A stretch of 64,000 nt of DNA. Origin: Verrucomicrobiota bacterium. Lineage in GTDB: Bacteria > Verrucomicrobiota > Verrucomicrobiia > Verrucomicrobiales > DEV007. Under the pieces are notes generated by a model, which made no database searches, had not been told where the DNA came from, and saw only the letters and a list, made by a program, of their open reading frames with translations. This document shows positions 4,856 to 29,114 of the stretch, in pieces (the stretch's first letter is position 1; every line of letters starts with the position of its first letter). The translations under genes and the position numbers were made by a program. Where the stretch lies: NCBI GenBank assembly GCA_045046875.1, contig JASFYY010000030.1:33525-97524 (forward strand), written 5' to 3'.

Positions 4856-6022
4856 CTAAGATTGGATTTCCAGATTCAAGGCCCATTTGAGCAAGTTATG
4901 CGAGCTTTTCCAGATGTAAGTACTAGAGCTGCCAATGATCACTACGATGCGATCCTGGCCATCCTTGTGCGCGCTGGAAATCAGGCATTTACCGCTGGCC
5001 CGGGTGTAGCCGGTTTTCATGCCATTGCAGAGGGGAAAATCACGCAATACACGGTTGGTATTAATAAGCGTGCGCTTTTTGCCATTGCTGAAATTAAAAT
5101 CACAGCTTTTGATTTTGACCAAGTCTCGGATCACCGGTTCGTGATAGGCTTCGAAAGCGAGCAGCGCCATGTCGTGCGCGGTGGAATATTGCCTCTTGTC
5201 GGGCAAGCCGTGCGGATTGGTGAAATGGGAATTGGTCATACCCAAGAGCAGCGCAAACTCATTCATTTTAACGCTGAAAGCATCCACACTACCCGCCTGG
5301 TCGATCGCCAGACATTCGGCGATGTCGTTGCCGCTACGAACCAGCAGACCTTTTAATAACTCCCGCCGGGTGTAATGCTGGCCAGGTTTGATGCCAATAA
5401 CGGTGGGCTCGACTTTGGCGATCTCGGGAGTCACCAGAACTTTTTTATCCAAATCTCCATTGCGGATCACCAACAGAGCGGTCAAAAGTTTTTGCGTACT
5501 GGCAACCGGTGTTTTTTTGTCAGCGTTTTTCAAATGATAAAATTGCCCGGTTTTGCCATCGATAATGGCCACGTATTTGCCCTTCACACTCGGCGTTTTG
5601 GGACCATTCCAGGCGTGGGGTGGGGGAAGCTTCTCACGGCGCTTGATATAGTTTTCGCGAGATTCAAGAATGGACTCTCGATCCAGCAGGGCTTTTTCAC
5701 GCTCGCTGATTGCCTTTTCCCGTTCGGCCAGGGCTTTTTCACGCTTGAGAACAGCCTGGGTGCGTGCTGATAAATTATCAGCAATACGCTCCAGCATATC
5801 CTTCTGCTCTTTTTTGGGATCAACAGGATCGTCACTGATAACCACTTGCGCAGATTTGGGTCGTGCAGTCGCCGGCAGATCAATCGGAGCCTTTTTTCCC
5901 GCTGGGGTCGCCGACGCGTTGGTTTGCGCCCAAATACCGGAAGTTTGCAAACAGATCACAACGGAAAGGGCCAGCAACCAGCTGGAAAAAAAACATCGTT
6001 GTGTTGTGTTATTGGAAATCAT
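4856..6022 (-). CDS. D-alanyl-D-alanine carboxypeptidase (peptidase S11) with an N-terminal coiled coil
   Basis: SxxK (STQK), SxN (SGN) and KTG motifs; NPHGL. Confidence 0.9.
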   Translation of the reverse strand: MISNNTTQRCFFSSWLLALSVVICLQTSGIWAQTNASATPAGKKAPIDLPATARPKSAQVVISDDPVDPKKEQKDMLERIADNLSARTQAVLKREKALAEREKAISEREKALLDRESILESRENYIKRREKLPPPHAWNGPKTPSVKGKYVAIIDGKTGQFYHLKNADKKTPVASTQKLLTALLVIRNGDLDKKVLVTPEIAKVEPTVIGIKPGQHYTRRELLKGLLVRSGNDIAECLAIDQAGSVDAFSVKMNEFALLLGMTNSHFTNPHGLPDKRQYSTAHDMALLAFEAYHEPVIRDLVKIKSCDFNFSNGKKRTLINTNRVLRDFPLCNGMKTGYTRASGKCLISSAHKDGQDRIVVIIGSSSTYIWKSSHNLLKWALNLEIQS

Positions 6023-8984: not shown

Positions 8985-9012
8985 ATTTCACATTACATGT
9001 AGTGTGCGATAC
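8985..9012 (-). other. dif-like XerCD site, left prophage junction (attL)
   Basis: Minus strand GTATCGCACAC-TACATG-TAATGTGAAAT in an 11-6-11 layout; 24/28 identical to the site at 17390-17417. Confidence 0.88.
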
Positions 9013-9026
9013 AAGGAAGTAACATG

Positions 9027-9272
9027 TTAGTTAACAGTATGCAAATCCTTAAGATATGCAAGCCTTGCTGAGCGGTAAAACTTGTATTCTCGCAAGCTTT
9101 TTATTCCATAATAACGCCGCCCAGAACAGCGTATAAACTTTACTTCTCCCTTAACCGCTAATTGGTTAAGACGAGGGCGGCTAACATCAAGCATAGTCAT
9201 AGCAAGCGTAGGCGGAAAAATTCCATCTTGCTCACGTTGAAAGCTAAGAAACCTTGAATGACCACTAGCCAT
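9027..9272 (-). CDS. Phage HTH DNA-binding protein (excisionase/MerR-like winged HTH)
   Basis: LAMTMLDVSRPRLNQLAVKGEV...GRRYY pattern; basic; next to attL. Confidence 0.7.
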   Translation of the reverse strand: MASGHSRFLSFQREQDGIFPPTLAMTMLDVSRPRLNQLAVKGEVKFIRCSGRRYYGIKSLREYKFYRSARLAYLKDLHTVN

Positions 9273-9815
9273 GATGAAGCGTCAGACTAGACGCGGTGAA
9301 CGGAGTTTTAAGAGATAAAACAGCCAATTTTGTTTTATGGAAATTAGAATATAAGGACAAAAAAAATTTCATTTTAATTATTTAATCTTACTAAATTTAA
9401 AGTAAACCGAACTAAAGAGCAAGCGAAAGCGCCCACATGGGCGTTGACTCTGCAAATTAAGAAGGGGTTTGCCACCCCAAACCCCGCTAAACTGATGCAG
9501 TTTAATCCAATATTGCCTGCCGGCGGCTTACCCCCTCCGCCCCCTAAAGGGGGAACGGGAGAAGTCGTTTAAGAGATAAAAACTAAATTCCATTCCAGCA
9601 ATATTCATAACAACCTTAAAATAAGACAGTTAAAAGGCCATTGAAAAACAGTTTCCCAGGCAAAAGACAATATCCAAAAAACAAAAGCTTAAGGATGGTT
9701 GCCAAGACGACGAAAAGACAAAAGGAAGCCTAGGGCGGCAACCCTTTCTAATTTTTTATTAGTGCTTCGCAGAAAAAAAGGACATTCATTTTTAATAAGT
9801 TCCAAATAATCGCGC
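9273..9815. promoter_or_regulatory. Phage intergenic region with clustered hairpins (candidate packaging signal or complementary-strand origin)
   Basis: Inverted repeats at 9430-9443, 9464-9485, 9488-9504 and 9540-9553; lies downstream of the gene IV analogue, as the Ff intergenic region does. Confidence 0.55.
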
Positions 9816-11063
9816 TTATTTATGCCTCCTAGATGAAAGAAAAGACTTCTTTAAAGTTTTTTTACTCGATGAAAAAGGCAGTTTGAAGCGTGAAAACAGC
9901 TTTTTACGGGGTTTTACAGGCTCAACGGGCAGTTGCATAGGGTCAAAAGTGGCAAGGGCAGGGGAAACAGATTCTGCAATCGCTGGGACAACTCGAAGCA
10001 ATAACGCAATCTCACGCCGTGCATTTGATTCATCCTTTTTAAAACCAATCCCAAACAAACCCTTTTGTTTAAATTTACGCACCTCCTGACCCTTTAACCC
10101 TCCAACGGCATACCATTTGCCCAAAACCGGACGAAAACGACTCTCCCAGACCTGTGAAGCTATTTCCGGTATCAAATTGCCGTCAATCTCAGTTTCCCCG
10201 GCTACATCCTCAGATATTTGATTCACATTGATTTCAACGCCTGATCCCAATTGCACCAAATCAACAGTAAGAGTAAGAGCAACGCGCCGAAACTCGATGG
10301 AGTTCCGGACATTACCATTACCTTGTTGATCAGAGATAGGAACGGCAATTTCCCGCCCAGATGAAATTTTACCAGTTTCGCCACTAGAAAGAATAATTGA
10401 AGGCCTAGCGACCACATCGAGCCTACCGGAATCCTGTAAACGATCAATTGCTAGCGTGAGCCAATCCGTTTTTAAATCCAATCTGCCCGGAGAACTTAAA
10501 ATTGAATGATTATCAAAACTAAGGCGATCACCTTCCGAATATTTCAGAACCCAATCAAGTGAAAACTTTTCGCCATTAGAAATATTAGCAAAACCGATAA
10601 CAGCCTCAACTCGATACTGATCACCAGCAATATCAATAGCGCCTAACATAGCTTCAATCATTGGAGCCTGGTCCTCATCCAATCTGACAATCACTTGATT
10701 GCCTACTGGATTAATCATCCAATCAATTCGCGTATTGGTTCCAGAGTTTTGACGGAAAAACTCAATATTAGGAACAGCCCTATTAACGAATTTGCGAACA
10801 ATAACAACTTGTTCAGATTTCTCTGATGGGTCAGAAACAGGGGCAGGGGAGGGGAGCAAAGGTTTTTCAACCATTAAAGGCTGTGGAGCTTTTTCTTGCT
10901 CATCATCCAAACCAGTTTTTTCTTTTTCAGAATCATTTTCAGACTCTGCGCGGGCATCCATGGAAGCGCCTATAGCACCAAACAAACCGCGACCGCTAGA
11001 AAGCCTATTTTTAACACCCCAACCGATGCCAACCAGCAACAACACTACTATTAATAATTTCAT
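9816..11063 (-). CDS. Phage pIV-like secretin
   Basis: Secretin-domain motifs RPSIILSSGETGKISSGREI, IEFRRVALTL, VGGL; AAGGAG SD upstream. Confidence 0.85.
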   Translation of the reverse strand: MKLLIVVLLLVGIGWGVKNRLSSGRGLFGAIGASMDARAESENDSEKEKTGLDDEQEKAPQPLMVEKPLLPSPAPVSDPSEKSEQVVIVRKFVNRAVPNIEFFRQNSGTNTRIDWMINPVGNQVIVRLDEDQAPMIEAMLGAIDIAGDQYRVEAVIGFANISNGEKFSLDWVLKYSEGDRLSFDNHSILSSPGRLDLKTDWLTLAIDRLQDSGRLDVVARPSIILSSGETGKISSGREIAVPISDQQGNGNVRNSIEFRRVALTLTVDLVQLGSGVEINVNQISEDVAGETEIDGNLIPEIASQVWESRFRPVLGKWYAVGGLKGQEVRKFKQKGLFGIGFKKDESNARREIALLLRVVPAIAESVSPALATFDPMQLPVEPVKPRKKLFSRFKLPFSSSKKTLKKSFLSSRRHK

Positions 11064-11817
11064 TTTGTGACTCCTTTTTTACTCTCATTTTAACCAAGAT
11101 AGGAAATTCAAGCTCGAGCAAAGCTATAATCCTTTTTAAAACACTAACCTTTTTAACTTGCCGTCTTTTAATTCGGGCACGCTGATTTTGTGCCATGCCT
11201 TGCATAAGTGAATCTAGCATAGCCTCCGTTTTGTAGCAGCGACCAACGGACATAGTGAACCGCGCAAACTTACGCCGCATAATCAAACCCGATTTAGCAT
11301 CTCGACAAACCCAAACAAATATTTGACCGAACATTTTACCAATCAAAGGAAGAGTAATATGTTTTAAATTCACTGCCGACCAAATCACTTGAGACTGTTT
11401 TCTGAATTGTGAATTCATCGTGGTTTTGTCCTGGGTAATGAAAATAACATCAACCCCCGCTTTACGACTTTGAGTTAAGAAAGAAAGCATATCACCATCT
11501 TTTGATTGCGTCTCTTTCCACTTATGCGCGTTATACCAAAGATGCCCCTCGTCAATCGTAACGAGAACAGGACATTCAAGAGAGCCCCAGTCTACAAGTT
11601 TCCACCAATCTGTTAAACCATCAGCAACAGGCAAACTTTTTAATTGTTTCGAATCAAATTCAACCCCATAGCGCGCCGCTAAATAACGAGTCACATGATC
11701 ATGGTCAAATTCAATATTGGTAAAAGCCGTACCGCCAGCAGCTAAATGCTCAATCGTATTGACTACAGCCAAATAAGTTTTACCACCCCCGATTTTCCCC
11801 TCAATTATAGAAATCAT
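11011..11817 (-). CDS. Zot-like / pI morphogenesis ATPase
   Basis: Walker A GKIGGGKT, Walker B VTIDEGH, QSRKAGVDVIFITQ motif. Confidence 0.92.
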   Translation of the reverse strand: MISIIEGKIGGGKTYLAVVNTIEHLAAGGTAFTNIEFDHDHVTRYLAARYGVEFDSKQLKSLPVADGLTDWWKLVDWGSLECPVLVTIDEGHLWYNAHKWKETQSKDGDMLSFLTQSRKAGVDVIFITQDKTTMNSQFRKQSQVIWSAVNLKHITLPLIGKMFGQIFVWVCRDAKSGLIMRRKFARFTMSVGRCYKTEAMLDSLMQGMAQNQRARIKRRQVKKVSVLKRIIALLELEFPILVKMRVKKESQNEIINSSVVAGWHRLGC

Positions 11818-11822
11818 TTTTA

Positions 11823-12146
11823 TTAATTAGCGACTGTTGGAATAAAGCTTTTGATCCAACGAAACAAAAGCAACGCTGAAAACATGGTGAAATACGCAAG
11901 GCTCATTGCGAGAGTTTCAGACAAGGCAAAAAAATGATTCACTAAACCCGAAACCTCAGCAACAGCGCTGAAATTCAGATTAGAAAACATCATTTGCGAC
12001 GAGAGAAAAGAAGCAAAATTTACAAGCAAATCTGCAAGCATACCAGTAACCGATTCAATCACGGCAACCACTGGCAAAACGAAAAGACTAAGTTTAGCTA
12101 ACATTTTAGCCATAAACTCAGCAATCCTAACTAATAACAAGGCCAT
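11823..12146 (-). CDS. pVI-like minor coat protein
   Basis: 107 aa, hydrophobic, ends WIKSFIP; lies between pIII and pI. Confidence 0.8.
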   Translation of the reverse strand: MALLLVRIAEFMAKMLAKLSLFVLPVVAVIESVTGMLADLLVNFASFLSSQMMFSNLNFSAVAEVSGLVNHFFALSETLAMSLAYFTMFSALLLFRWIKSFIPTVAN

Positions 12147-12149
12147 GTT

Positions 12150-13916
12150 TTATATTTTTAAAGTTTTATAGGACAACGTGAGAAAACCGACACTCATAAA
12201 AATGAGAGTGCAAAGCCGAACCATGCCCCAAACCGAACTTGTGAAATCCAGCTTTAAAGGAAAATTTGCACCTAGAAGAGTAAAACTTTTATCAATCATA
12301 GCCACGTCACCCGAAAAGGCCGGAATCGTAGGCAATGACATAAATTTACCATTATCAGAAAGACTATCTTTCAAAATTTCCAAATCATTAAATGAATCAG
12401 TTAAAGCTGTAGCAGATTCTACACCCGACAAATCTCCCGATTCCATATCGAGATTATTAGCATAACCCAAAGCCTCAGCGTCAATACGCCGTATTTCACC
12501 AGCAACATCACCATCACCCGTAATTTTTACACTTGATGAATTATCAATCTCTGTAATTTCTGGTGGAAGGGGAATAGAACCCGTAAAACCATTAGTGTTT
12601 GAAACCGTAGTTGAAGTAGTCCCGTCTGGATTTGTTGTAGTGACGACCTGACTAGCCGTGGTTGAGCCGTCCGAGCCAATCACAGAAGAACCCGATGTTG
12701 TGACCGTTCCAGACCCGCCAACAATTGCACCACGTAAATTGAGCTCAGAAACACTAAGAGTTCCACCGCCGATTTGCTCAACCGGCGTACCTGATTGAGT
12801 CGTGACAGTTAATCCAGAAGCCGACTCTAGCGCATAATTCCTATCAACAGTCGTCTGACCATTGCCAACAGCAATCGTTTCAACTGGCCTTTCACCGTCT
12901 TGGATAACTATAATTTGTGGAGCTCCAGATTGATTGTCAACATTAAGCCGCACAGTAAAATCATCAGCAGGGTTAAAAGTCAAATTCCCCGCCGATTGAG
13001 TACGCGTAGATGCACCAACCACAAAAGAAGGATCAAAAGAAGGATCAAGAGCACCAGTAGGAACAACAAAAATCTGAGTGCCAGGCGGCAAATCTTGCGA
13101 ACCGGAAATCTGCAAAGTTTGCCCAGGAGCGATATCAATAGCTCCATTTGTTAAACTAATTTGCTGCCCATCAGGAGTCAAAGCAAAGACCTCCAAAGAC
13201 CGTGTGGTATCGTCATTATTAGTGACCTGATAATCAAAATCAAGACCCTCAATTTCCGGGGGAGCGGCAGTAGAAACACCTGGCCGACCAGTTGCCGGAA
13301 CCTCAATAGAATAAAGATTAATACCCTCAACAGGAAAAGAAATCGAACTAGAAGTAACAGACCCCAAAGAAATAGAAAGGCCAACGGTTACACTGCCAGA
13401 AAGTAACAATTCAAAGGAAACACTGTCCAGAATAGTCTCTGAATTATAATCGAGCAATTGAAACGTACCAAAAATAGAACCCTCAGCAATAACATTAATA
13501 GGCGGGTCAGTTGTCTGAGGATAAAGCCTGCCATCATCTGACCCCGCTGTACCATAACTTTTAAAACCTCTAACAGTATTAAAATTATGAGTTAAAGCGC
13601 GAATGCTCTCAGCAGGAACGCTAGTGGCGATTTTATCAACACTCAGCGCATAAATTGCATGTTGACCAGAGTCTAAAAGAATTCGAACTTTAAAATGCTT
13701 TTGAGTCAACGCCTGATTGTGCACATTAAAGGGAATATTAGCACTCTTAAAACTAAAAATTGCCGCACCAGAAACAACCGTTCCATCATTAAAAGTTAGA
13801 TTTTCGCCTCCCAAATATTTACGAGAACCCGTAAAATCAGTCGTTATTTTATAGCCCTGAGCGGCTAACTCACTTGATAAACCAAGAATTAATACCGTAA
13901 ATACTAACAAGCGCAA
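12150..13916 (-). CDS. pIII-like adsorption protein
   Basis: Likely TTG start at 13916 giving the signal peptide MRLLVFTVLILGLSSELAAQ (open frame extends to 14024); S/T/G-rich linker TTTNPDGTTSTT; C-terminal TM anchor. Confidence 0.8.
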   Translation of the reverse strand: MRLLVFTVLILGLSSELAAQGYKITTDFTGSRKYLGGENLTFNDGTVVSGAAIFSFKSANIPFNVHNQALTQKHFKVRILLDSGQHAIYALSVDKIATSVPAESIRALTHNFNTVRGFKSYGTAGSDDGRLYPQTTDPPINVIAEGSIFGTFQLLDYNSETILDSVSFELLLSGSVTVGLSISLGSVTSSSISFPVEGINLYSIEVPATGRPGVSTAAPPEIEGLDFDYQVTNNDDTTRSLEVFALTPDGQQISLTNGAIDIAPGQTLQISGSQDLPPGTQIFVVPTGALDPSFDPSFVVGASTRTQSAGNLTFNPADDFTVRLNVDNQSGAPQIIVIQDGERPVETIAVGNGQTTVDRNYALESASGLTVTTQSGTPVEQIGGGTLSVSELNLRGAIVGGSGTVTTSGSSVIGSDGSTTASQVVTTTNPDGTTSTTVSNTNGFTGSIPLPPEITEIDNSSSVKITGDGDVAGEIRRIDAEALGYANNLDMESGDLSGVESATALTDSFNDLEILKDSLSDNGKFMSLPTIPAFSGDVAMIDKSFTLLGANFPLKLDFTSSVWGMVRLCTLIFMSVGFLTLSYKTLKI

Positions 13917-14034
13917 TAAACCCCCCAAGAATTGTCGAAATACCCTCGTTGAAAATCGCAATAAAACCCGTTGCAGGCTCATTGATTTTTTGAAGCTCTG
14001 CCAAAATTTGAGTAAGTAATTCATTATCAGTCAT
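13870..14034 (-). CDS. Small hydrophobic phage protein (pVII/pIX-like)
   Basis: 54 aa from ATG at 14034 (MTDNELL...) with a C-terminal TM; overlaps the pIII start. Confidence 0.6.
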   Translation of the reverse strand: MTDNELLTQILAELQKINEPATGFIAIFNEGISTILGGFIALVSIYGINSWFIK

Positions 14035-14045
14035 TACGTAAAGGG

Positions 14046-14420
14046 CTAAGACCAATCAGCGTCGTCTGGATGCGAGTCTCTCAGAAACTCTTGATATGCC
14101 GCCTCATTTTCCTCTGCGGTCATTTCGTTTCCACTCGCATCATAAAAAGTTTGAGGTTCAGCACTCAGTAAATCACCATCATCATTGTAAGAATATTCAA
14201 CGCCATTCTCAACATATTGATTAGGATGAGCAGATTCATTCATACCGTGTAAATCCCAATCCTCCATTTGTTCTTGTAAATAATCATCATCACCATTAAC
14301 TAAAATTTTAAAAGTGCTGATGACTTTCTCAACTACAAAAAGAGTAATCACAGCAATCAAGCCACCCAATAAAAAAAGTTTTATTTCAGAATCCGCGTAA
14401 TCAAAAAGAGTATCAAACAT
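14046..14420 (-). CDS. Phage membrane protein with a highly acidic C-terminal tail
   Basis: One N-terminal TM followed by a D/E-rich region. Confidence 0.7.
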   Translation of the reverse strand: MFDTLFDYADSEIKLFLLGGLIAVITLFVVEKVISTFKILVNGDDDYLQEQMEDWDLHGMNESAHPNQYVENGVEYSYNDDGDLLSAEPQTFYDASGNEMTAEENEAAYQEFLRDSHPDDADWS

Positions 14421-14446
14421 AAGAATAAATAGATTAAATTAAATAG

Positions 14447-14482
14447 TTTTAAGAGGGGATGAATAAACACCCCCCCTTAAAA
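14447..14482 (-). terminator. Hairpin after the major coat gene (central terminator-like)
   Basis: Minus strand TTTTAAGGGGGGGTG...CATCCCCTCTTAAAA just downstream of the pVIII stop. Confidence 0.6.
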
Positions 14483-14491
14483 CGATCAACC

Positions 14492-14707
14492 CTAGCTGAT
14501 GATGCGTTTAGCAGCACGCAGCACGAACACGGCACCAATCACGATACCGACCACAGCAACAGCGGCAGGAATCACCAAGCCAAGTTCAGTGGAAATGTCA
14601 CCAGTAGCAGTGACAAGATCAGCACCAACACCAGCCTGAGCTGATCCAGAAGCCAACAACGATGCACCCGCAAGAGCGCCCAACAGCATGTTTTTATTTT
14701 TTTTCAT
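14492..14707 (-). CDS. pVIII-like major coat protein
   Basis: 25-aa leader ending AQA; 46-aa mature part with acidic N-terminus, one TM and a basic C-terminus (RAAKRIIS). Confidence 0.9.
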   Translation of the reverse strand: MKKNKNMLLGALAGASLLASGSAQAGVGADLVTATGDISTELGLVIPAAVAVVGIVIGAVFVLRAAKRIIS

Positions 14708-14727
14708 GTTTTTCTTATTTTGTCTAA

Positions 14728-14832
14728 TTAACCGCCGACAGCATCAAAAACCAGCCTAACCCCAGATATAACTACGCCAACAGCTCGCAAACCGAACCAA
14801 AGCAAAATTAAACTGGAAGCTGTCAATACCAT
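14728..14832 (-). CDS. 34-aa pVII/pIX-like minor coat protein (not in the ORF track)
   Basis: Translated by hand: MVLTASSLILLWFGLRAVGVVISGVRLVFDAVGG; directly upstream of pVIII. Confidence 0.6.
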   Translation of the reverse strand: MVLTASSLILLWFGLRAVGVVISGVRLVFDAVGG

Positions 14833-14848
14833 CTATAAACGATTAAAT

Positions 14849-15028
14849 CTATAATGCCGCTCCCCGTGCTACCTCGGCAGGAGTCACCAACCGAGAGCCC
14901 GCAGTCATAGGGAGAAGCAAAGTTTCACTAGCTTTCAAATCTTTTAAAATTCGATAAGCTAAAATTCTCAATTCCTTACTTTTTTGGATACTCTGAAAAC
15001 AGAGTTTTTTAATTTCGTTATTGTTCAT
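14849..15028 (-). CDS. 59-aa hypothetical phage protein (not in the ORF track)
   Basis: Translated by hand: MNNNEIKKLCFQSIQKSKELRILAYR...; ATGA overlap with the upstream ORF. Confidence 0.5.
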   Translation of the reverse strand: MNNNEIKKLCFQSIQKSKELRILAYRILKDLKASETLLLPMTAGSRLVTPAEVARGAAL

Positions 15029-15222
15029 CCTTCAAGGAATTTAGTGGGAACATCTTTGAAGAAATCAATGTGGACTGATTGCAATTCCGCATTTTTCTTT
15101 TCCTTCACATGATCAGTTGTATGATTTAAATACTTTTTTAAAAAATCATCATCAGAAGCACCGAGCGCATAACATTCAAACTGTCTACCATCGGCATCTA
15201 AACAAATAAATTTAACTCTCAT
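15025..15222 (-). CDS. Hypothetical phage protein
   Basis: 65-aa ORF in the same direction as the phage operon. Confidence 0.55.
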   Translation of the reverse strand: MRVKFICLDADGRQFECYALGASDDDFLKKYLNHTTDHVKEKKNAELQSVHIDFFKDVPTKFLEG

Positions 15223-15318
15223 GTCAATTAAGTTTTATTTTAACAAGGAAAGGAAACCCGCTTTCCTCGGTGTGCTCTCGCAAGCTCGGCACAGTCGAGG
15301 TAAGCGGGTAATCCTTAT

Positions 15319-15693
15319 TTAAACTATCTTGATGTCTCCCATCAATTCAGGATTAGACCCTTGGTTAGTATTCGCACTAGTGACATTGATTTCAACTGCC
15401 GCGAATTGGGGCAGGGGAACCAATGAACCAGGCGAACCCTCTTTTGCCTCTGCCATCTGTAGATGTGAAAACGAGCCTTTGCCGTCTGAAATCTCAGTGG
15501 TGACACGCTCCCAACATTTGCCTGACTTTGCCATCTTAGGCGGTGTATGGACTGACGTGACAACTAAGCCACAAGCTATCAAGCCGGTACGGTCACTGAA
15601 TTTATCTTGGAGAATTCCAGCGAACATTTTAACCATTGGGCTTTCATCCGATTTATTCCCTGCCTGTCTTTCGATAATAAGTTTTTCTGCCAT
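15319..15693 (-). CDS. Putative ssDNA-binding protein (pV-like)
   Basis: 124 aa, beta-rich OB-fold-like pattern; follows Rep, the position of gene V. Confidence 0.6.
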   Translation of the reverse strand: MAEKLIIERQAGNKSDESPMVKMFAGILQDKFSDRTGLIACGLVVTSVHTPPKMAKSGKCWERVTTEISDGKGSFSHLQMAEAKEGSPGSLVPLPQFAAVEINVTSANTNQGSNPELMGDIKIV

Positions 15694-16520
15694 GATTCTA
15701 TGTGTTTTTCAATGTTTTTTGCCGCTGTGTAGTATTGTTTGTTATACGGCAGCGACGCTTTACCGATAAAAACCAGATTGTTTAAATCTGTAAAAAATGT
15801 TGATTTGAGGGATTTTAATCTTGTGACCTGTGAGCCTAAATACCTGTCCTGTGAGTCTCTAGCAATCAGCACTACACAACACGCCCAACGGTCTAATTTT
15901 GCGCGCACTGTCCATGGTAAAAGACAGCTTTTCGGTTCGAGCTTTTTTTTTAGCTCAGTATCAATATTGCCAGTGTAAAAATGTGGGGACGTTTGCCAGA
16001 ATCGCGCACGGTCGAACGTTTTTCCATCGTCGCCCTGATAATCAGCGAACCAATCAGGGATGGTGGAATTTGAACCATCGGGATTTTTGAAAAGGTATTT
16101 GAACATATAGTCCAACGTTGCGCCCTCGATGCGTTTGATATTGACGCGACCCAATCCCCAAAACTCGCTGACCATCTGCATCTCAAACACGGTTAGTTTG
16201 CGAGTTATAGACATAGCCATGTGCCAATGTACCCAGCCATGATTCAAACCATTGCCGCCGTGAAATTCCATCTTCCAACAATGTTTAATCTCGAAATGGT
16301 CACCAAATTGCATTTTCATCATCGCGTTAAATCTACGCAAGCGGTCTAACCCTTTGAAATAACCGTCTACCTCATCCACAAATAGATCAGGATTGAGAGT
16401 TAGGGTGATGAAACGCCAATTTGTCATATCTGGCACACCCTTAGCAAGTATCTTGTTGCGCATCATCCGCACACCTTCGGGAGTAAACCAGTTTGGAAAT
16501 TTGTAGTCTCTGATTTCCAT
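15579..16520 (-). CDS. HUH rolling-circle replication initiator
   Basis: Motif 1 FITLT, motif 2 HWH, motif 3 YMFKY with two Tyr. Confidence 0.9.
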   Translation of the reverse strand: MEIRDYKFPNWFTPEGVRMMRNKILAKGVPDMTNWRFITLTLNPDLFVDEVDGYFKGLDRLRRFNAMMKMQFGDHFEIKHCWKMEFHGGNGLNHGWVHWHMAMSITRKLTVFEMQMVSEFWGLGRVNIKRIEGATLDYMFKYLFKNPDGSNSTIPDWFADYQGDDGKTFDRARFWQTSPHFYTGNIDTELKKKLEPKSCLLPWTVRAKLDRWACCVVLIARDSQDRYLGSQVTRLKSLKSTFFTDLNNLVFIGKASLPYNKQYYTAAKNIEKHIESWQKNLLSKDRQGINRMKAQWLKCSLEFSKINSVTVPA

Positions 16521-16521
16521 A

Positions 16522-16854
16522 TTATCCGAGTTGTAAGTTTTCCTGTGTTTCCACGGGACCCAATAAATCCAAAATCAAGCCACGCAGGAAAATAACTACG
16601 GCATAACGGAAACGCCCCATATGACAAAAAAATCGGCGTCCATCATCCATCAAAATTAACCACTCCCCGAGCCCTAAATATACGGCGACGCATTTGCGGT
16701 GTGAAATCGTCTCGTTACGATAACAAAGCTCGAATAATAGAGCGGGGGGAGCGGTTGGCAAAACCTCGAATTGAGGTTTGCATTTCTGGCGAGAAAAATC
16801 CCGCGGGTCGGAAGAGATCAAATCAATGATCCCAATTTCTGGCTGGTCTGCCAT
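16522..16854 (-). CDS. Hypothetical phage protein
   Basis: 110-aa ORF ending 1 nt before the Rep start. Confidence 0.6.
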   Translation of the reverse strand: MADQPEIGIIDLISSDPRDFSRQKCKPQFEVLPTAPPALLFELCYRNETISHRKCVAVYLGLGEWLILMDDGRRFFCHMGRFRYAVVIFLRGLILDLLGPVETQENLQLG

Positions 16855-17004
16855 ATCTTATTTTGTCTAGTAAAAACGGGATTACTTAAGTCCCGTTGTC
16901 CGAATCAATCGAACGACACCAGAAAACACCAAATAAAAGAAAATGTCAAAATAAAAAAAACAGAGCAGCGAAACCGAAAGACAAATCGAGCCTCTAAAAA
17001 AGAA

Positions 17005-17157
17005 TCAAATAATGAAATTCAGCAAAGATTTCTCCAAAGCGCCAAAGATTAAATACCTAACCGCAAAGTAAAGAATAACCAAAATAGGAATAGTTAGGAT
17101 GGCAGATAAGCAACTACCCAAACAGCTTTTTTTACCAGCTTCCCAATTCAATTTCAT
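17005..17157 (-). CDS. 50-aa single-TM phage protein (not in the ORF track)
   Basis: Translated by hand: MKLNWEAGKKSCLGSCLSAILTIPILVILYFAVRYLIFGALEKSLLNFII. Confidence 0.45.
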   Translation of the reverse strand: MKLNWEAGKKSCLGSCLSAILTIPILVILYFAVRYLIFGALEKSLLNFII

Positions 17158-17222
17158 AATTCAAAAATATAATTAAAAACAAAACCCGAAAAGAAAATCA
17201 AACCGGAAAGAGCATTAAAAAA

Positions 17223-17252
17223 GCCTTCTGGGATTAAGTAGTCCCAGAAGGC
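17223..17252 (-). promoter_or_regulatory. Perfect 11-bp stem-loop, candidate rolling-circle nick site (dso)
   Basis: Minus strand GCCTTCTGGGA-CTACTTAA-TCCCAGAAGGC upstream of rep. Confidence 0.45.
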
Positions 17253-17389
17253 GTATGAAGGTAACTAGCCTTCTTCGCGCCCAAAAGACTAGACAGGGAT
17301 AAGAAACCCTTGGAAAACCCTTGTGCGCTTATAGACACCATAAACGCACAAAGCCTGATAGAGCAAGGGGAATTAGAACAAAAAACCCG

Positions 17390-17417
17390 ATTTCACATTA
17401 CATGTATTGTGCGAAGT
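17390..17417 (-). other. Chromosomal dif site / right prophage junction (attR)
   Basis: Minus strand ACTTCGCACAA-TACATG-TAATGTGAAAT, resembling E. coli dif GGTGCGCATAA-TGTATA-TTATGTTAAAT. Confidence 0.9.
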
Positions 17418-27881: not shown

Positions 27882-29114
27882 CTACTTGCCCTTGTTCCAG
27901 ATAATGTGTGTGCCGGATTTCCCTGGCACCACCACCTCTTTCCAACCATCACCATCCATGTCGATCACGCGAATCTGCAAACCAATGCCAGGCGCTTTCC
28001 CCGATTCTCCCTGGGCAATTTTTTTGGGCTTGGACCAAGTTTGCGCTTCGCCATCCCAATCATAATAATGCACCGTGGCTTTGTCCCCCGATCCTGGATC
28101 ACTTCCTGAGTGGGCAAAATAACGTTTACCGGTGATCAACTCGGGCTGACCATCATTGTCGATATCCTCCCACGCCAGCGCATGCGCTTGGGAGAATTTT
28201 TTATCGATCTCATGGATCCTCCAAGTGGTTTGACCATTCTTTTGTGTGTCCTGCTGTTCCATCCAGTAAACGCCGTAGTTGTGGCCGTCGGCCCAGATGA
28301 TGTCATTTTTGCCGTCTTTGTTAAGATCGACAACCAACGAAGGGCAACTGCCGTGAGGCATGGTGAAATCATTGTGGTATTTCCACGCAGAGGCAGTCGG
28401 ACCCGCCGCCGGTTGTTCATACCAGCCATCTTTATACAGAATATCTTGTTTGCCGTCGCCGTTGATATCGCCAAAACCCATACCGTGTCCATTGCCGCTG
28501 GCGGAAATAGTGTGTTTTTTCAACACCGGCTTGCCTTCGCCGTCTTTGGCAAAAGTCCACATATCCATCGGACTGTCATCCTTCCAACTGTTCTCAAAAT
28601 ACTCAGGTTTGCCGTCACCGTCGATATCGTGCAAATAACTGATCTCGTTGTGGGATGTTCCGGTATCCGCTAACAAATGACCTTTCCAGCCCTCCCCCTC
28701 ATATTTGCCTTTGCCCGGATTTTCATACCAAAAAACCTCGCTGACCGTAAATCCACCAGCCACCACATCCAAATCGCCGTCACCATCCACATCCAGCAGG
28801 TGGTCCGAATTGTTCATCATGTAGTCCTTGCCAAAAGTTTCCAGAGTGCGGATTTTCAGACCTTTGAAATCCGGTGCCGCATACCAGTATTCTCCAGCGA
28901 CCACATCCAATTTGCCATCACCGTTGATATCCCCCACGGCCACGCCTTCATTGTTATCCATCCGCAACTGCTGCACCTTGAACTTCAAACCTGCCGGTTT
29001 TTTACCTTTTACCGCTTTAGGAGCCGCGATCAATGTTCCAGCAGACAACAGGGCGATCGATAACATTGGGATTATTTTCTTCATCTTCATGGGGAATACT
29101 AGAGCACAAATCAT
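27882..29114 (-). CDS. FG-GAP/VCBS repeat protein
   Basis: Multiple DxNGDGxxD repeats; signal peptide. Confidence 0.85.
   Translation of the reverse strand: MICALVFPMKMKKIIPMLSIALLSAGTLIAAPKAVKGKKPAGLKFKVQQLRMDNNEGVAVGDINGDGKLDVVAGEYWYAAPDFKGLKIRTLETFGKDYMMNNSDHLLDVDGDGDLDVVAGGFTVSEVFWYENPGKGKYEGEGWKGHLLADTGTSHNEISYLHDIDGDGKPEYFENSWKDDSPMDMWTFAKDGEGKPVLKKHTISASGNGHGMGFGDINGDGKQDILYKDGWYEQPAAGPTASAWKYHNDFTMPHGSCPSLVVDLNKDGKNDIIWADGHNYGVYWMEQQDTQKNGQTTWRIHEIDKKFSQAHALAWEDIDNDGQPELITGKRYFAHSGSDPGSGDKATVHYYDWDGEAQTWSKPKKIAQGESGKAPGIGLQIRVIDMDGDGWKEVVVPGKSGTHIIWNKGK

Follow-up and report, generated by a model that had tools for sequence, protein, structure and literature searches.

The attachment site of a filamentous phage integrated in a Verrucomicrobiota chromosome retains the XerD arm and the whole spacer of the host dif site and carries a degenerate XerC arm, the mirror image of the design known from TLC-phi and the gonococcal genetic island (GGI). 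The element lies in the window, i.e. the whole stretch of 64,000 nucleotides that was analysed, and is, as judged from its genes, an inovirus prophage inserted in dif (Table 1). The same layout was found in all 22 pairs of attachment sites collected from this and related elements, and it appears to be a heritable trait of this phage group.

Table 1. Features of the prophage and of its attachment sites (positions in the window)
Feature	Position	Strand	Basis or remark
attL	8985..9012	+	host XerD arm 8985-8995, spacer 8996-9001, phage XerC arm 9002-9012 with 4 changes
Filamentous prophage, 8,405 bp, without integrase	8985..17417	-	genes on minus strand
81-aa winged helix-turn-helix protein (excisionase/BldC-like fold)	9027..9272	-	HTH_17 weak; ends 14 bp from attL
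Secretin, pIV-like	9816..11063	-	PF00263 3.5e-11; phrog_1012 1.8e-23
Four KOPS octamers, all toward attR, none reversed	9956, 10841, 10846, 15409 (9956..15416)	+	60 Markov control runs gave a mean of 0.17 and at most 2
pI morphogenesis ATPase (Zot N-terminal family)	11011..11817	-	PF05707 2.5e-14; phrog_197, phrog_1675
pVI-like hydrophobic protein (name inferred)	11823..12146	-	position; clusters with gene in 19/19 elements
pIII-like adsorption protein, 624 aa	12150..14024	-	position and size only; no family match
Major coat protein, pVIII-like	14492..14707	-	phrog_1646 E 0.0045
Putative ssDNA-binding protein pV	15319..15693	-	position and size only; no family match
Rolling-circle replication initiator	15579..16520	-	PF23343 2.8e-09; cluster of 9 elements
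Stem-loop, arms = inner heptamer of host XerC arm facing outward	17321..17351		about 40 bp inside attR
attR = restored dif	17390..17417	+	phage XerD arm, spacer, host XerC arm

The left attachment site, attL, reads ATTTCACATTA CATGTA GTGTGCGATAC, and the right one, attR, reads ATTTCACATTA CATGTA TTGTGCGAAGT. They are direct repeats spaced by 8,405 bp. The two sites have 17 bp in common, consisting of the first arm and the 6-bp spacer, and their mismatches, at position 18, which adjoins the spacer, and at positions 26, 27 and 28, all fall in the right arm. This alignment bears out the sequence-only reading, which had proposed an identical XerD arm and spacer and four differences confined to the XerC arm. 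A shifted register with a 7-bp spacer gave, by eye, a poorer alignment than 11-6-11. The two sites are the sole copies in the 5.59-Mb assembly (163 contigs), the next best places having 8 mismatches; as 28-mers the repeats are beyond chance, as 11-mers alone they are not.

The insertion site is dif. The left flank of attL matches an empty site in the relative L003 (genome G005), where both flanks, 97% identical to those in the window, meet at one full site; the exact insertion point is therefore given by the junction around this single site. Four of the five other genomes of the genus contain a single copy equal to attR except for one spacer base (CATATA vs CATGTA), and the dif motif was matched in 305 of 401 genomes from the order, in almost every case by a single copy, whereas the reversed motif, used as a control, matched nowhere. 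On the contig (C30) the GC skew flips across the site, from +0.07..0.17 to -0.10..-0.18, and KOPS are distributed 3:0 on the left, 4:0 in the prophage and 0:7 on the right. Because the polarity of KOPS switches at attR, and not at attL, attR is the dif in use, and the earlier proposal that attR restores dif stands, its sequence agreeing with the dif of the genus in all but the one spacer base. As in other IMEX, insertion took place at the chromosomal dif, which is restored at one end. The host genome has a XerD-like gene on contig C25, a XerC-like gene on contig C77 and an FtsK-gamma domain; the Xer proteins score slightly below the TIGR cut-offs, each favouring its own model. A same-species empty site was sought in JGI metagenomes with 0 matches.

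Both spacers in the window (8996-9001 and 17401-17406) read CATGTA, as opposed to CATATA in four of four matched genomes of the genus, including the 97%-identical one; possibly, the host spacer was converted by cycles of the phage. In genus g46, CATGCA occurred in 3/4 lysogens vs 1/9 others among the genomes listed, which are kin and thus dependent samples. The host genome (G000) also has two integron-integrase-like genes, at C117:19489-20280 (TIGR02249 above cut-off) and C27:44696-45247.

Assignment of the arms is supported by homology and conservation. On the opposite strand attR reads ACTTCGCACAA TACATG TAATGTGAAAT, which aligns to the E. coli dif sequence (quoted in PMC3603311) as XerC arm, spacer and XerD arm. 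Variation across the order peaks in the middle of the right arm, and the arm shared by attL and attR is conserved; the XerC arm is described as the variable arm in all phyla (PMC3025954). Two more distant hosts (L082 and L087) have a near-canonical XerD arm of the TTATG type on the shared side. These three lines of evidence uphold the proposed arm identity, with the shared arm as the predicted XerD arm. In L082 and L087 the att layout is the same, and the phage genes are oppositely oriented relative to dif.

The prophage has a GC content of about 0.41 vs about 0.48 in its flanks, and it contains the inovirus (Tubulavirales) gene set, with a pI ATPase, small coat genes and a rolling-circle Rep in a 5-12 kb unit. 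The labels pIII, pV and pVI are presumptive, given by position and by the usual inovirus gene order. No integrase was detected in the element with Pfam and PHROGs, the check for serine recombinases being limited to the window's element; as expected for an IMEX, it has no recombinase of its own, and the host has XerC and XerD. Between the pIV and winged-helix genes (9417-9485) there are four clustered terminator-like hairpins (1.2 in shuffled sequences), a cluster that may include the packaging signal or an origin. Elsewhere in the window, at 28300-28932, repeats about 140-160 bp apart lie within a minus-strand gene and are likely a coding pattern of a repeat protein.

Relatives were gathered via pI, and the 22 pairs are that of the window plus 15, 4 and 2 from three sources. 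The search of the order found pI prophages in 20 of 401 genomes; 19 regions yielded 15 att pairs, two sites with only an attL-like half, one with only a full dif and one with neither. Seven loci from genome contigs added four new pairs, next to one duplicate of an order region, one half-site and one locus with nothing, and 14 regions from other orders or classes gave two pairs, two full dif sites without a partner in the fetched stretch and, with the motif used, nothing in ten. One duplicate and nothing new came from 44 viral-contig loci. Haloferula luteola, a cultured environmental bacterium, is among the lysogens. A viral-contig scan with a single pI detected no relative, and 26 viral-contig loci selected by the att pattern had none of the phage genes. 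Neither pI nor the winged-helix protein had a match among GenBank phages, and a PDB sequence search found nothing better than E 0.23. A profile search returned 51 relatives at E<=1e-10, counted without gene context, and 24 metagenome loci provided two further integrated pairs of the same design.

In the 22 pairs attL and attR are 89% identical in the XerD arm and 97% in the spacer, both values being inflated because pairs were detected through these parts, and 43% in the XerC arm (random 24%); the elements compared are related, not independent. Spacers are identical in 20/22 pairs vs 11% between unrelated pairs. The three bases on the XerC side match in 20/22 pairs (21% in cross comparisons), those on the XerD side in 21/22 (59%), and the matched halves include the rare variants CAC, CGT, CGT and CAA. 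Next to the spacer attR has T in 22/22 cases; at the same place attL has G in 13/22, T in 7, C in 1 and A in 1, and the G spans both main phage clades plus another order and class. The number of mismatches in the XerC arm of attL ranges from 2 to 9, the window's element, with 4, being among the least degenerate. The opposite asymmetry, a poor XerD arm with a good XerC arm, was seen in no pair in the scans able to show one.

Elements with the same attP were also found in the non-integrated order, with attP between the winged-helix gene and Rep (L162) or at both ends (L154), although the 152-nt terminal repeat of L154 is not identical throughout and both contigs could be tandem prophages instead of free circles. 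Since L162 and L154 carry the poor XerC arm in the non-integrated order, it is a property of the phage and not a product of decay; decay of attL after integration is ruled out by these intact attP sites and by the 22 parallel cases. The mirror-image design postulated from the single element is thus a real and heritable phage trait.

Some loci show additional peculiarities. The att pair of L058 (4197 and 12807, minus strand) has the spacers CCCCCA and CGCATA and eight identical bases outside the XerD arm, which does not fit a crossover with full homology. Extra half-sites consisting of XerD arm and spacer occur past attL in L006 (15132, 17203), L008 (11093, 11424 and a third about 830 bp on) and L168 (12189, 13273, 14570), which suggests that small elements or cassettes are stacked in tandem at dif, in the manner of IMEX arrays. 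A motif, TCAA-NN-RSTT, lies in or just beyond the degenerate arm in 8/22 attL flanks (L006, L011, L012, L058, L059, L060, L061 and L062); it was derived post hoc from the same sequences, is absent from the window's element and is a candidate site for an accessory protein.

KOPS in the window's prophage point 4:0 toward attR although that strand is C-rich. The bias is general in the group: 67:9 in 19 prophages vs about 15:14 in order-3 Markov controls (max 24, 60 runs), and 75:10 toward attR in the 22 elements. Nine other G-rich octamers had at most a weak bias in the 19 prophages. The genome-wide KOPS skew of 874:54 is not independent, the contigs having been oriented by GC skew. It follows from the polarity that FtsK arriving from the left has to pass attL. 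Prophages of enterobacteria, too, have polarised KOPS, and selection in lysogens alone is expected to produce them (PMC3603311); because such selection predicts the polarity as well, KOPS are by themselves no proof of FtsK-driven entry.

The gene beside attL codes for an 81-aa protein, whose structural model (pLDDT 91) has BldC and phage Xis as closest folds, none at E<=0.001; it is a candidate directionality factor or regulator. Relatives of this protein are located beside attL in 10/22 elements, an unrelated helical protein in 7 and neither in 5. The helical protein, 76-115 aa long, belongs to a second phage clade with a different Rep (L065, at 5380-5727, L066, L067, L069, L070, L072 and L075; also L068, L071 and L074). 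The XafT domain DUF3653 was found in 0/22 host genomes, phmmer found no homologue of PM2 P15 or VGJ ORF136 in the paired loci, and comparison of profiles between the 81-aa protein and VGJ ORF136 gave a probability of 1.6%. Tyrosine recombinases were absent from the 22 paired loci; six unpaired loci gave a match. Complex prediction for the 81-aa protein with host XerD and XerC scored 0.00, which speaks neither for nor against an interaction.

The mechanism that we favour tentatively, with a confidence somewhat short of even, is that attP enters dif as double-stranded DNA by a full crossover started by FtsK-activated XerD and finished by XerC, that the poor XerC arm acts as a brake, and that the excisionase-like protein may lift this brake. 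Both strand exchanges would occur, as in dimer resolution and TLC, and not one as in CTX and VGJ, because host-specific spacer variants match on both halves. FtsK would be the activator and XerD would act first, since the intact XerD arm and the KOPS directed toward it suit FtsK-driven integration and no Xaf was found. In Vibrio, FtsK is reported to integrate a XafT-less plasmid efficiently only if the XerD arm is near-canonical, the innermost base of the arm being critical (PMC9226527). The poor XerC arm, chiefly the changed base at the XerC cut (position according to PMC4246890), would slow the second exchange and make attL a weak partner, and attR-attR dimer resolution would then beat attL-attR excision. 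Entry needs XerC on the same poor arm as excision, and this arm alone therefore sets no direction; copy number must contribute, or else the excisionase-like protein next to attL, which may release the XerC brake. On its own, XerC has little affinity for dif (KD >100 nM) and needs the cooperation of XerD (PMC2800217), a reliance that would explain why a poor XerC arm is tolerated. Several observations count against parts of this mechanism. Vibrio difI variants with changes at the 5th and 6th innermost bases of the XerC arm are described as harmless, which speaks against a brake; the unequal spacers in 2/22 pairs, differing at 3/6 positions in L058, speak against a full crossover; and 12/14 regions from other orders or classes gave no pair with the motif used. 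By analogy, it is possible that an unrelated activator acts here, as the layout can accompany one, PM2 and the left-armed elements of Vibrio having a XafT homologue.

Such an activator could be the phage protein beside attL itself, winged-helix or, in the second clade, helical, in which case integration would be independent of FtsK as in TLC and VGJ. The genes xafT and xafV directly adjoin attP (bioRxiv 10.64898/2026.06.12.731946), left-armed PM2-like phages encode a XafT homologue, and a conserved terminal gene occupies this place in 17/22 elements (10 winged-helix, 7 helical). We consider this explanation fairly unlikely, taking into account that DUF3653 is absent, that the profile match to VGJ ORF136 is negligible (see above), that the fold is Xis/BldC-like, and that the slot is filled by two unrelated genes and, in 5/22 elements, by neither. 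Alternatively, the XerC arm could be unconstrained: XerD, bound tightly, would recruit XerC even to a poor arm, attL would be about as good as dif, the phage would enter and leave freely, and the base changes would be drift. The weak binding of lone XerC and its cooperativity with XerD (PMC2800217), the variability of the XerC arm in all phyla, the functional XerC-arm variants described in Vibrio and the wide divergence among the attL arms (2-9 mismatches in 22) are all compatible with this. However, the changes strike positions fixed in the host, such as the T found beside the spacer in every attR, pure drift would not favour the G that recurs in 13/22 attL sites of both clades and of another order and class, and prophages are kept in 20/401 genomes of the order; free exchange by an unconstrained arm is therefore quite unlikely.

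The sequence-only reading had suggested that the design limits FtsK-driven excision; on this view an altered XerC arm might let FtsK displace XerCD from attL, much as happens at the GGI site, and excision driven by FtsK would be avoided. On its way to the XerD side of attR, FtsK, guided by KOPS, has to traverse attL, and lone XerD has a shorter half-life and halts FtsK less than XerCD does (PMC2800217). Against this, a half-site occupied just by XerD strongly blocks FtsK that comes from its outer face, the face that attL presents (PMC2800217), and the escape documented for GGI and TLC rests on a poor XerD arm (PMC9226527). Judged by these analogies GGI-style stripping is improbable, and a brake, if there is one, is more likely to operate at the XerC step. 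Exchange of a single strand, by XerC as in VGJ or by XerD in mirror image, with resolution by replication, would account for the L058 spacers, whose differences at 3/6 positions are too many for a full crossover, and for the one-base difference in L067; moreover, of the two L058 sites attL resembles the host more closely, which is what cutting at the XerC edge would give. Both spacer halves match host-specific variants in 20/22 pairs, however, and the spacer of VGJ, 7 bp long, departs from dif on the XerD side, which makes single exchange very improbable. Still less credit, to the point of extreme improbability, is given to a folded single-stranded attP of the CTX type or to decay of attL. Inoviruses do have a single-stranded phase, and the stem-loop near attR carries XerC-arm-like heptamers, but no similar heptamer pair was noticed by eye in the attR flanks of other elements, an inverted partner within 400 nt was no better than in shuffled controls in 19/19 elements, and in the folded junction the site does not form a stem; the missing inverted copy and the junction fold rule out a CTX-type hairpin, as the degenerate arm in the non-integrated permutations L162 and L154 speaks against decay.

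The layout had been proposed to be undescribed, which turned out to be incorrect: att sites made of XerD arm and spacer are already apparent in published accounts of phiRSS0, PM2 and the dif-type tailless prophages of Vibrio. The Ralstonia inovirus phiRSS0 is likewise a filamentous phage at dif, with a repeated core spanning XerD arm and spacer and a helix-turn-helix gene, ORF13, at attP; unlike here, its attP lies inside ORF13 and truncates it, and its host is a beta-proteobacterium (PMC3816273). The left-armed double-jelly-roll phages (PM2, Cr39582 and Vibrio prophages) share the 17-bp XerD arm and spacer, the degenerate XerC arm and the lack of an integrase, the Vibrio tailless prophages being bounded by a full dif and, opposite it, by the 17-bp core, whereas they are double-stranded and tailless and possess a XafT homologue (P15, DUF3653) that was not found in the Verrucomicrobiota group (PMC12715192). 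In the PM2-like phages P15 lies beside attP together with the repressor P16. The degenerate XerC arm is visible in attP of the PM2 record sequence. TLC-phi of Vibrio cholerae and the Neisseria GGI also have a single double-stranded dif-like attP with a dif-identical spacer and one degenerate arm, and restore dif at one end, but there the degenerate arm is the XerD arm, and TLC needs XafT (PMC4246890, PMC9226527, PMC5357621); in both, as far as described, the new dif has the prophage at its XerC side, and in the window it has the prophage at its XerD side. VGJ-phi, likewise an inovirus, has a single double-stranded attP at dif, next to a small helix-turn-helix gene (PMC4246890; bioRxiv 10.64898/2026.06.12.731946; NC_004736). 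Strand exchange in VGJ-phi is described as due to XerC alone, with XafV as activator, and its 7-bp spacer differs from dif on the XerD side, in contrast to the fully matched 6-bp spacer found here.

The attP studied here thus consists, like that of the left-armed dif mimics, of the XerD arm and spacer of dif with a degenerate XerC arm. The dif-identical spacer of TLC and GGI is present in 20/22 pairs, and their degenerate XerD arm is replaced by the reverse in 22/22. Homology limited to the XerC side of the spacer, often of 7 bp, which is typical of VGJ, was not observed, the spacer being 6 bp long with both halves matched, nor was a second, inverted dif-like site that folds with the first as in CTX. 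The element fits the testable features of IMEX and lacks those that define CTX, VGJ and TLC.

Because the layout has precedents, the known picture is not overturned. The scheme of three classes (CTX, VGJ, TLC), however, offers no slot for an attP that combines a perfect XerD arm with a poor XerC arm. Earlier records of this layout consist of sequences; in the present phage group it holds throughout, the known activator was not found, KOPS are aimed at the restored dif and a change at the XerC cut recurs. In the literature covered, from which most subscription journals were missing, there was no study of Verrucomicrobiota inoviruses at dif or of the mechanism of an XerD-armed attP. The wider proposal that these inoviruses form a fourth mechanistic class of IMEX, which would recruit FtsK rather than evade it, having a perfect XerD arm, KOPS directed at that arm and no Xaf, would secure their place through selection for another base at the XerC cut and would be released by a phage excisionase-type protein acting on the host Xer recombinases, is rather doubtful; if true, it would comprise a pairing of a phage excisionase-type protein with host Xer that we did not find described. 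The question how the element persists when FtsK meets an intact XerD arm at every division has become testable with 28-bp substrates. Few genetic tools are available for Verrucomicrobiota, and for this group the survey yields a dif consensus and natural integration modules.
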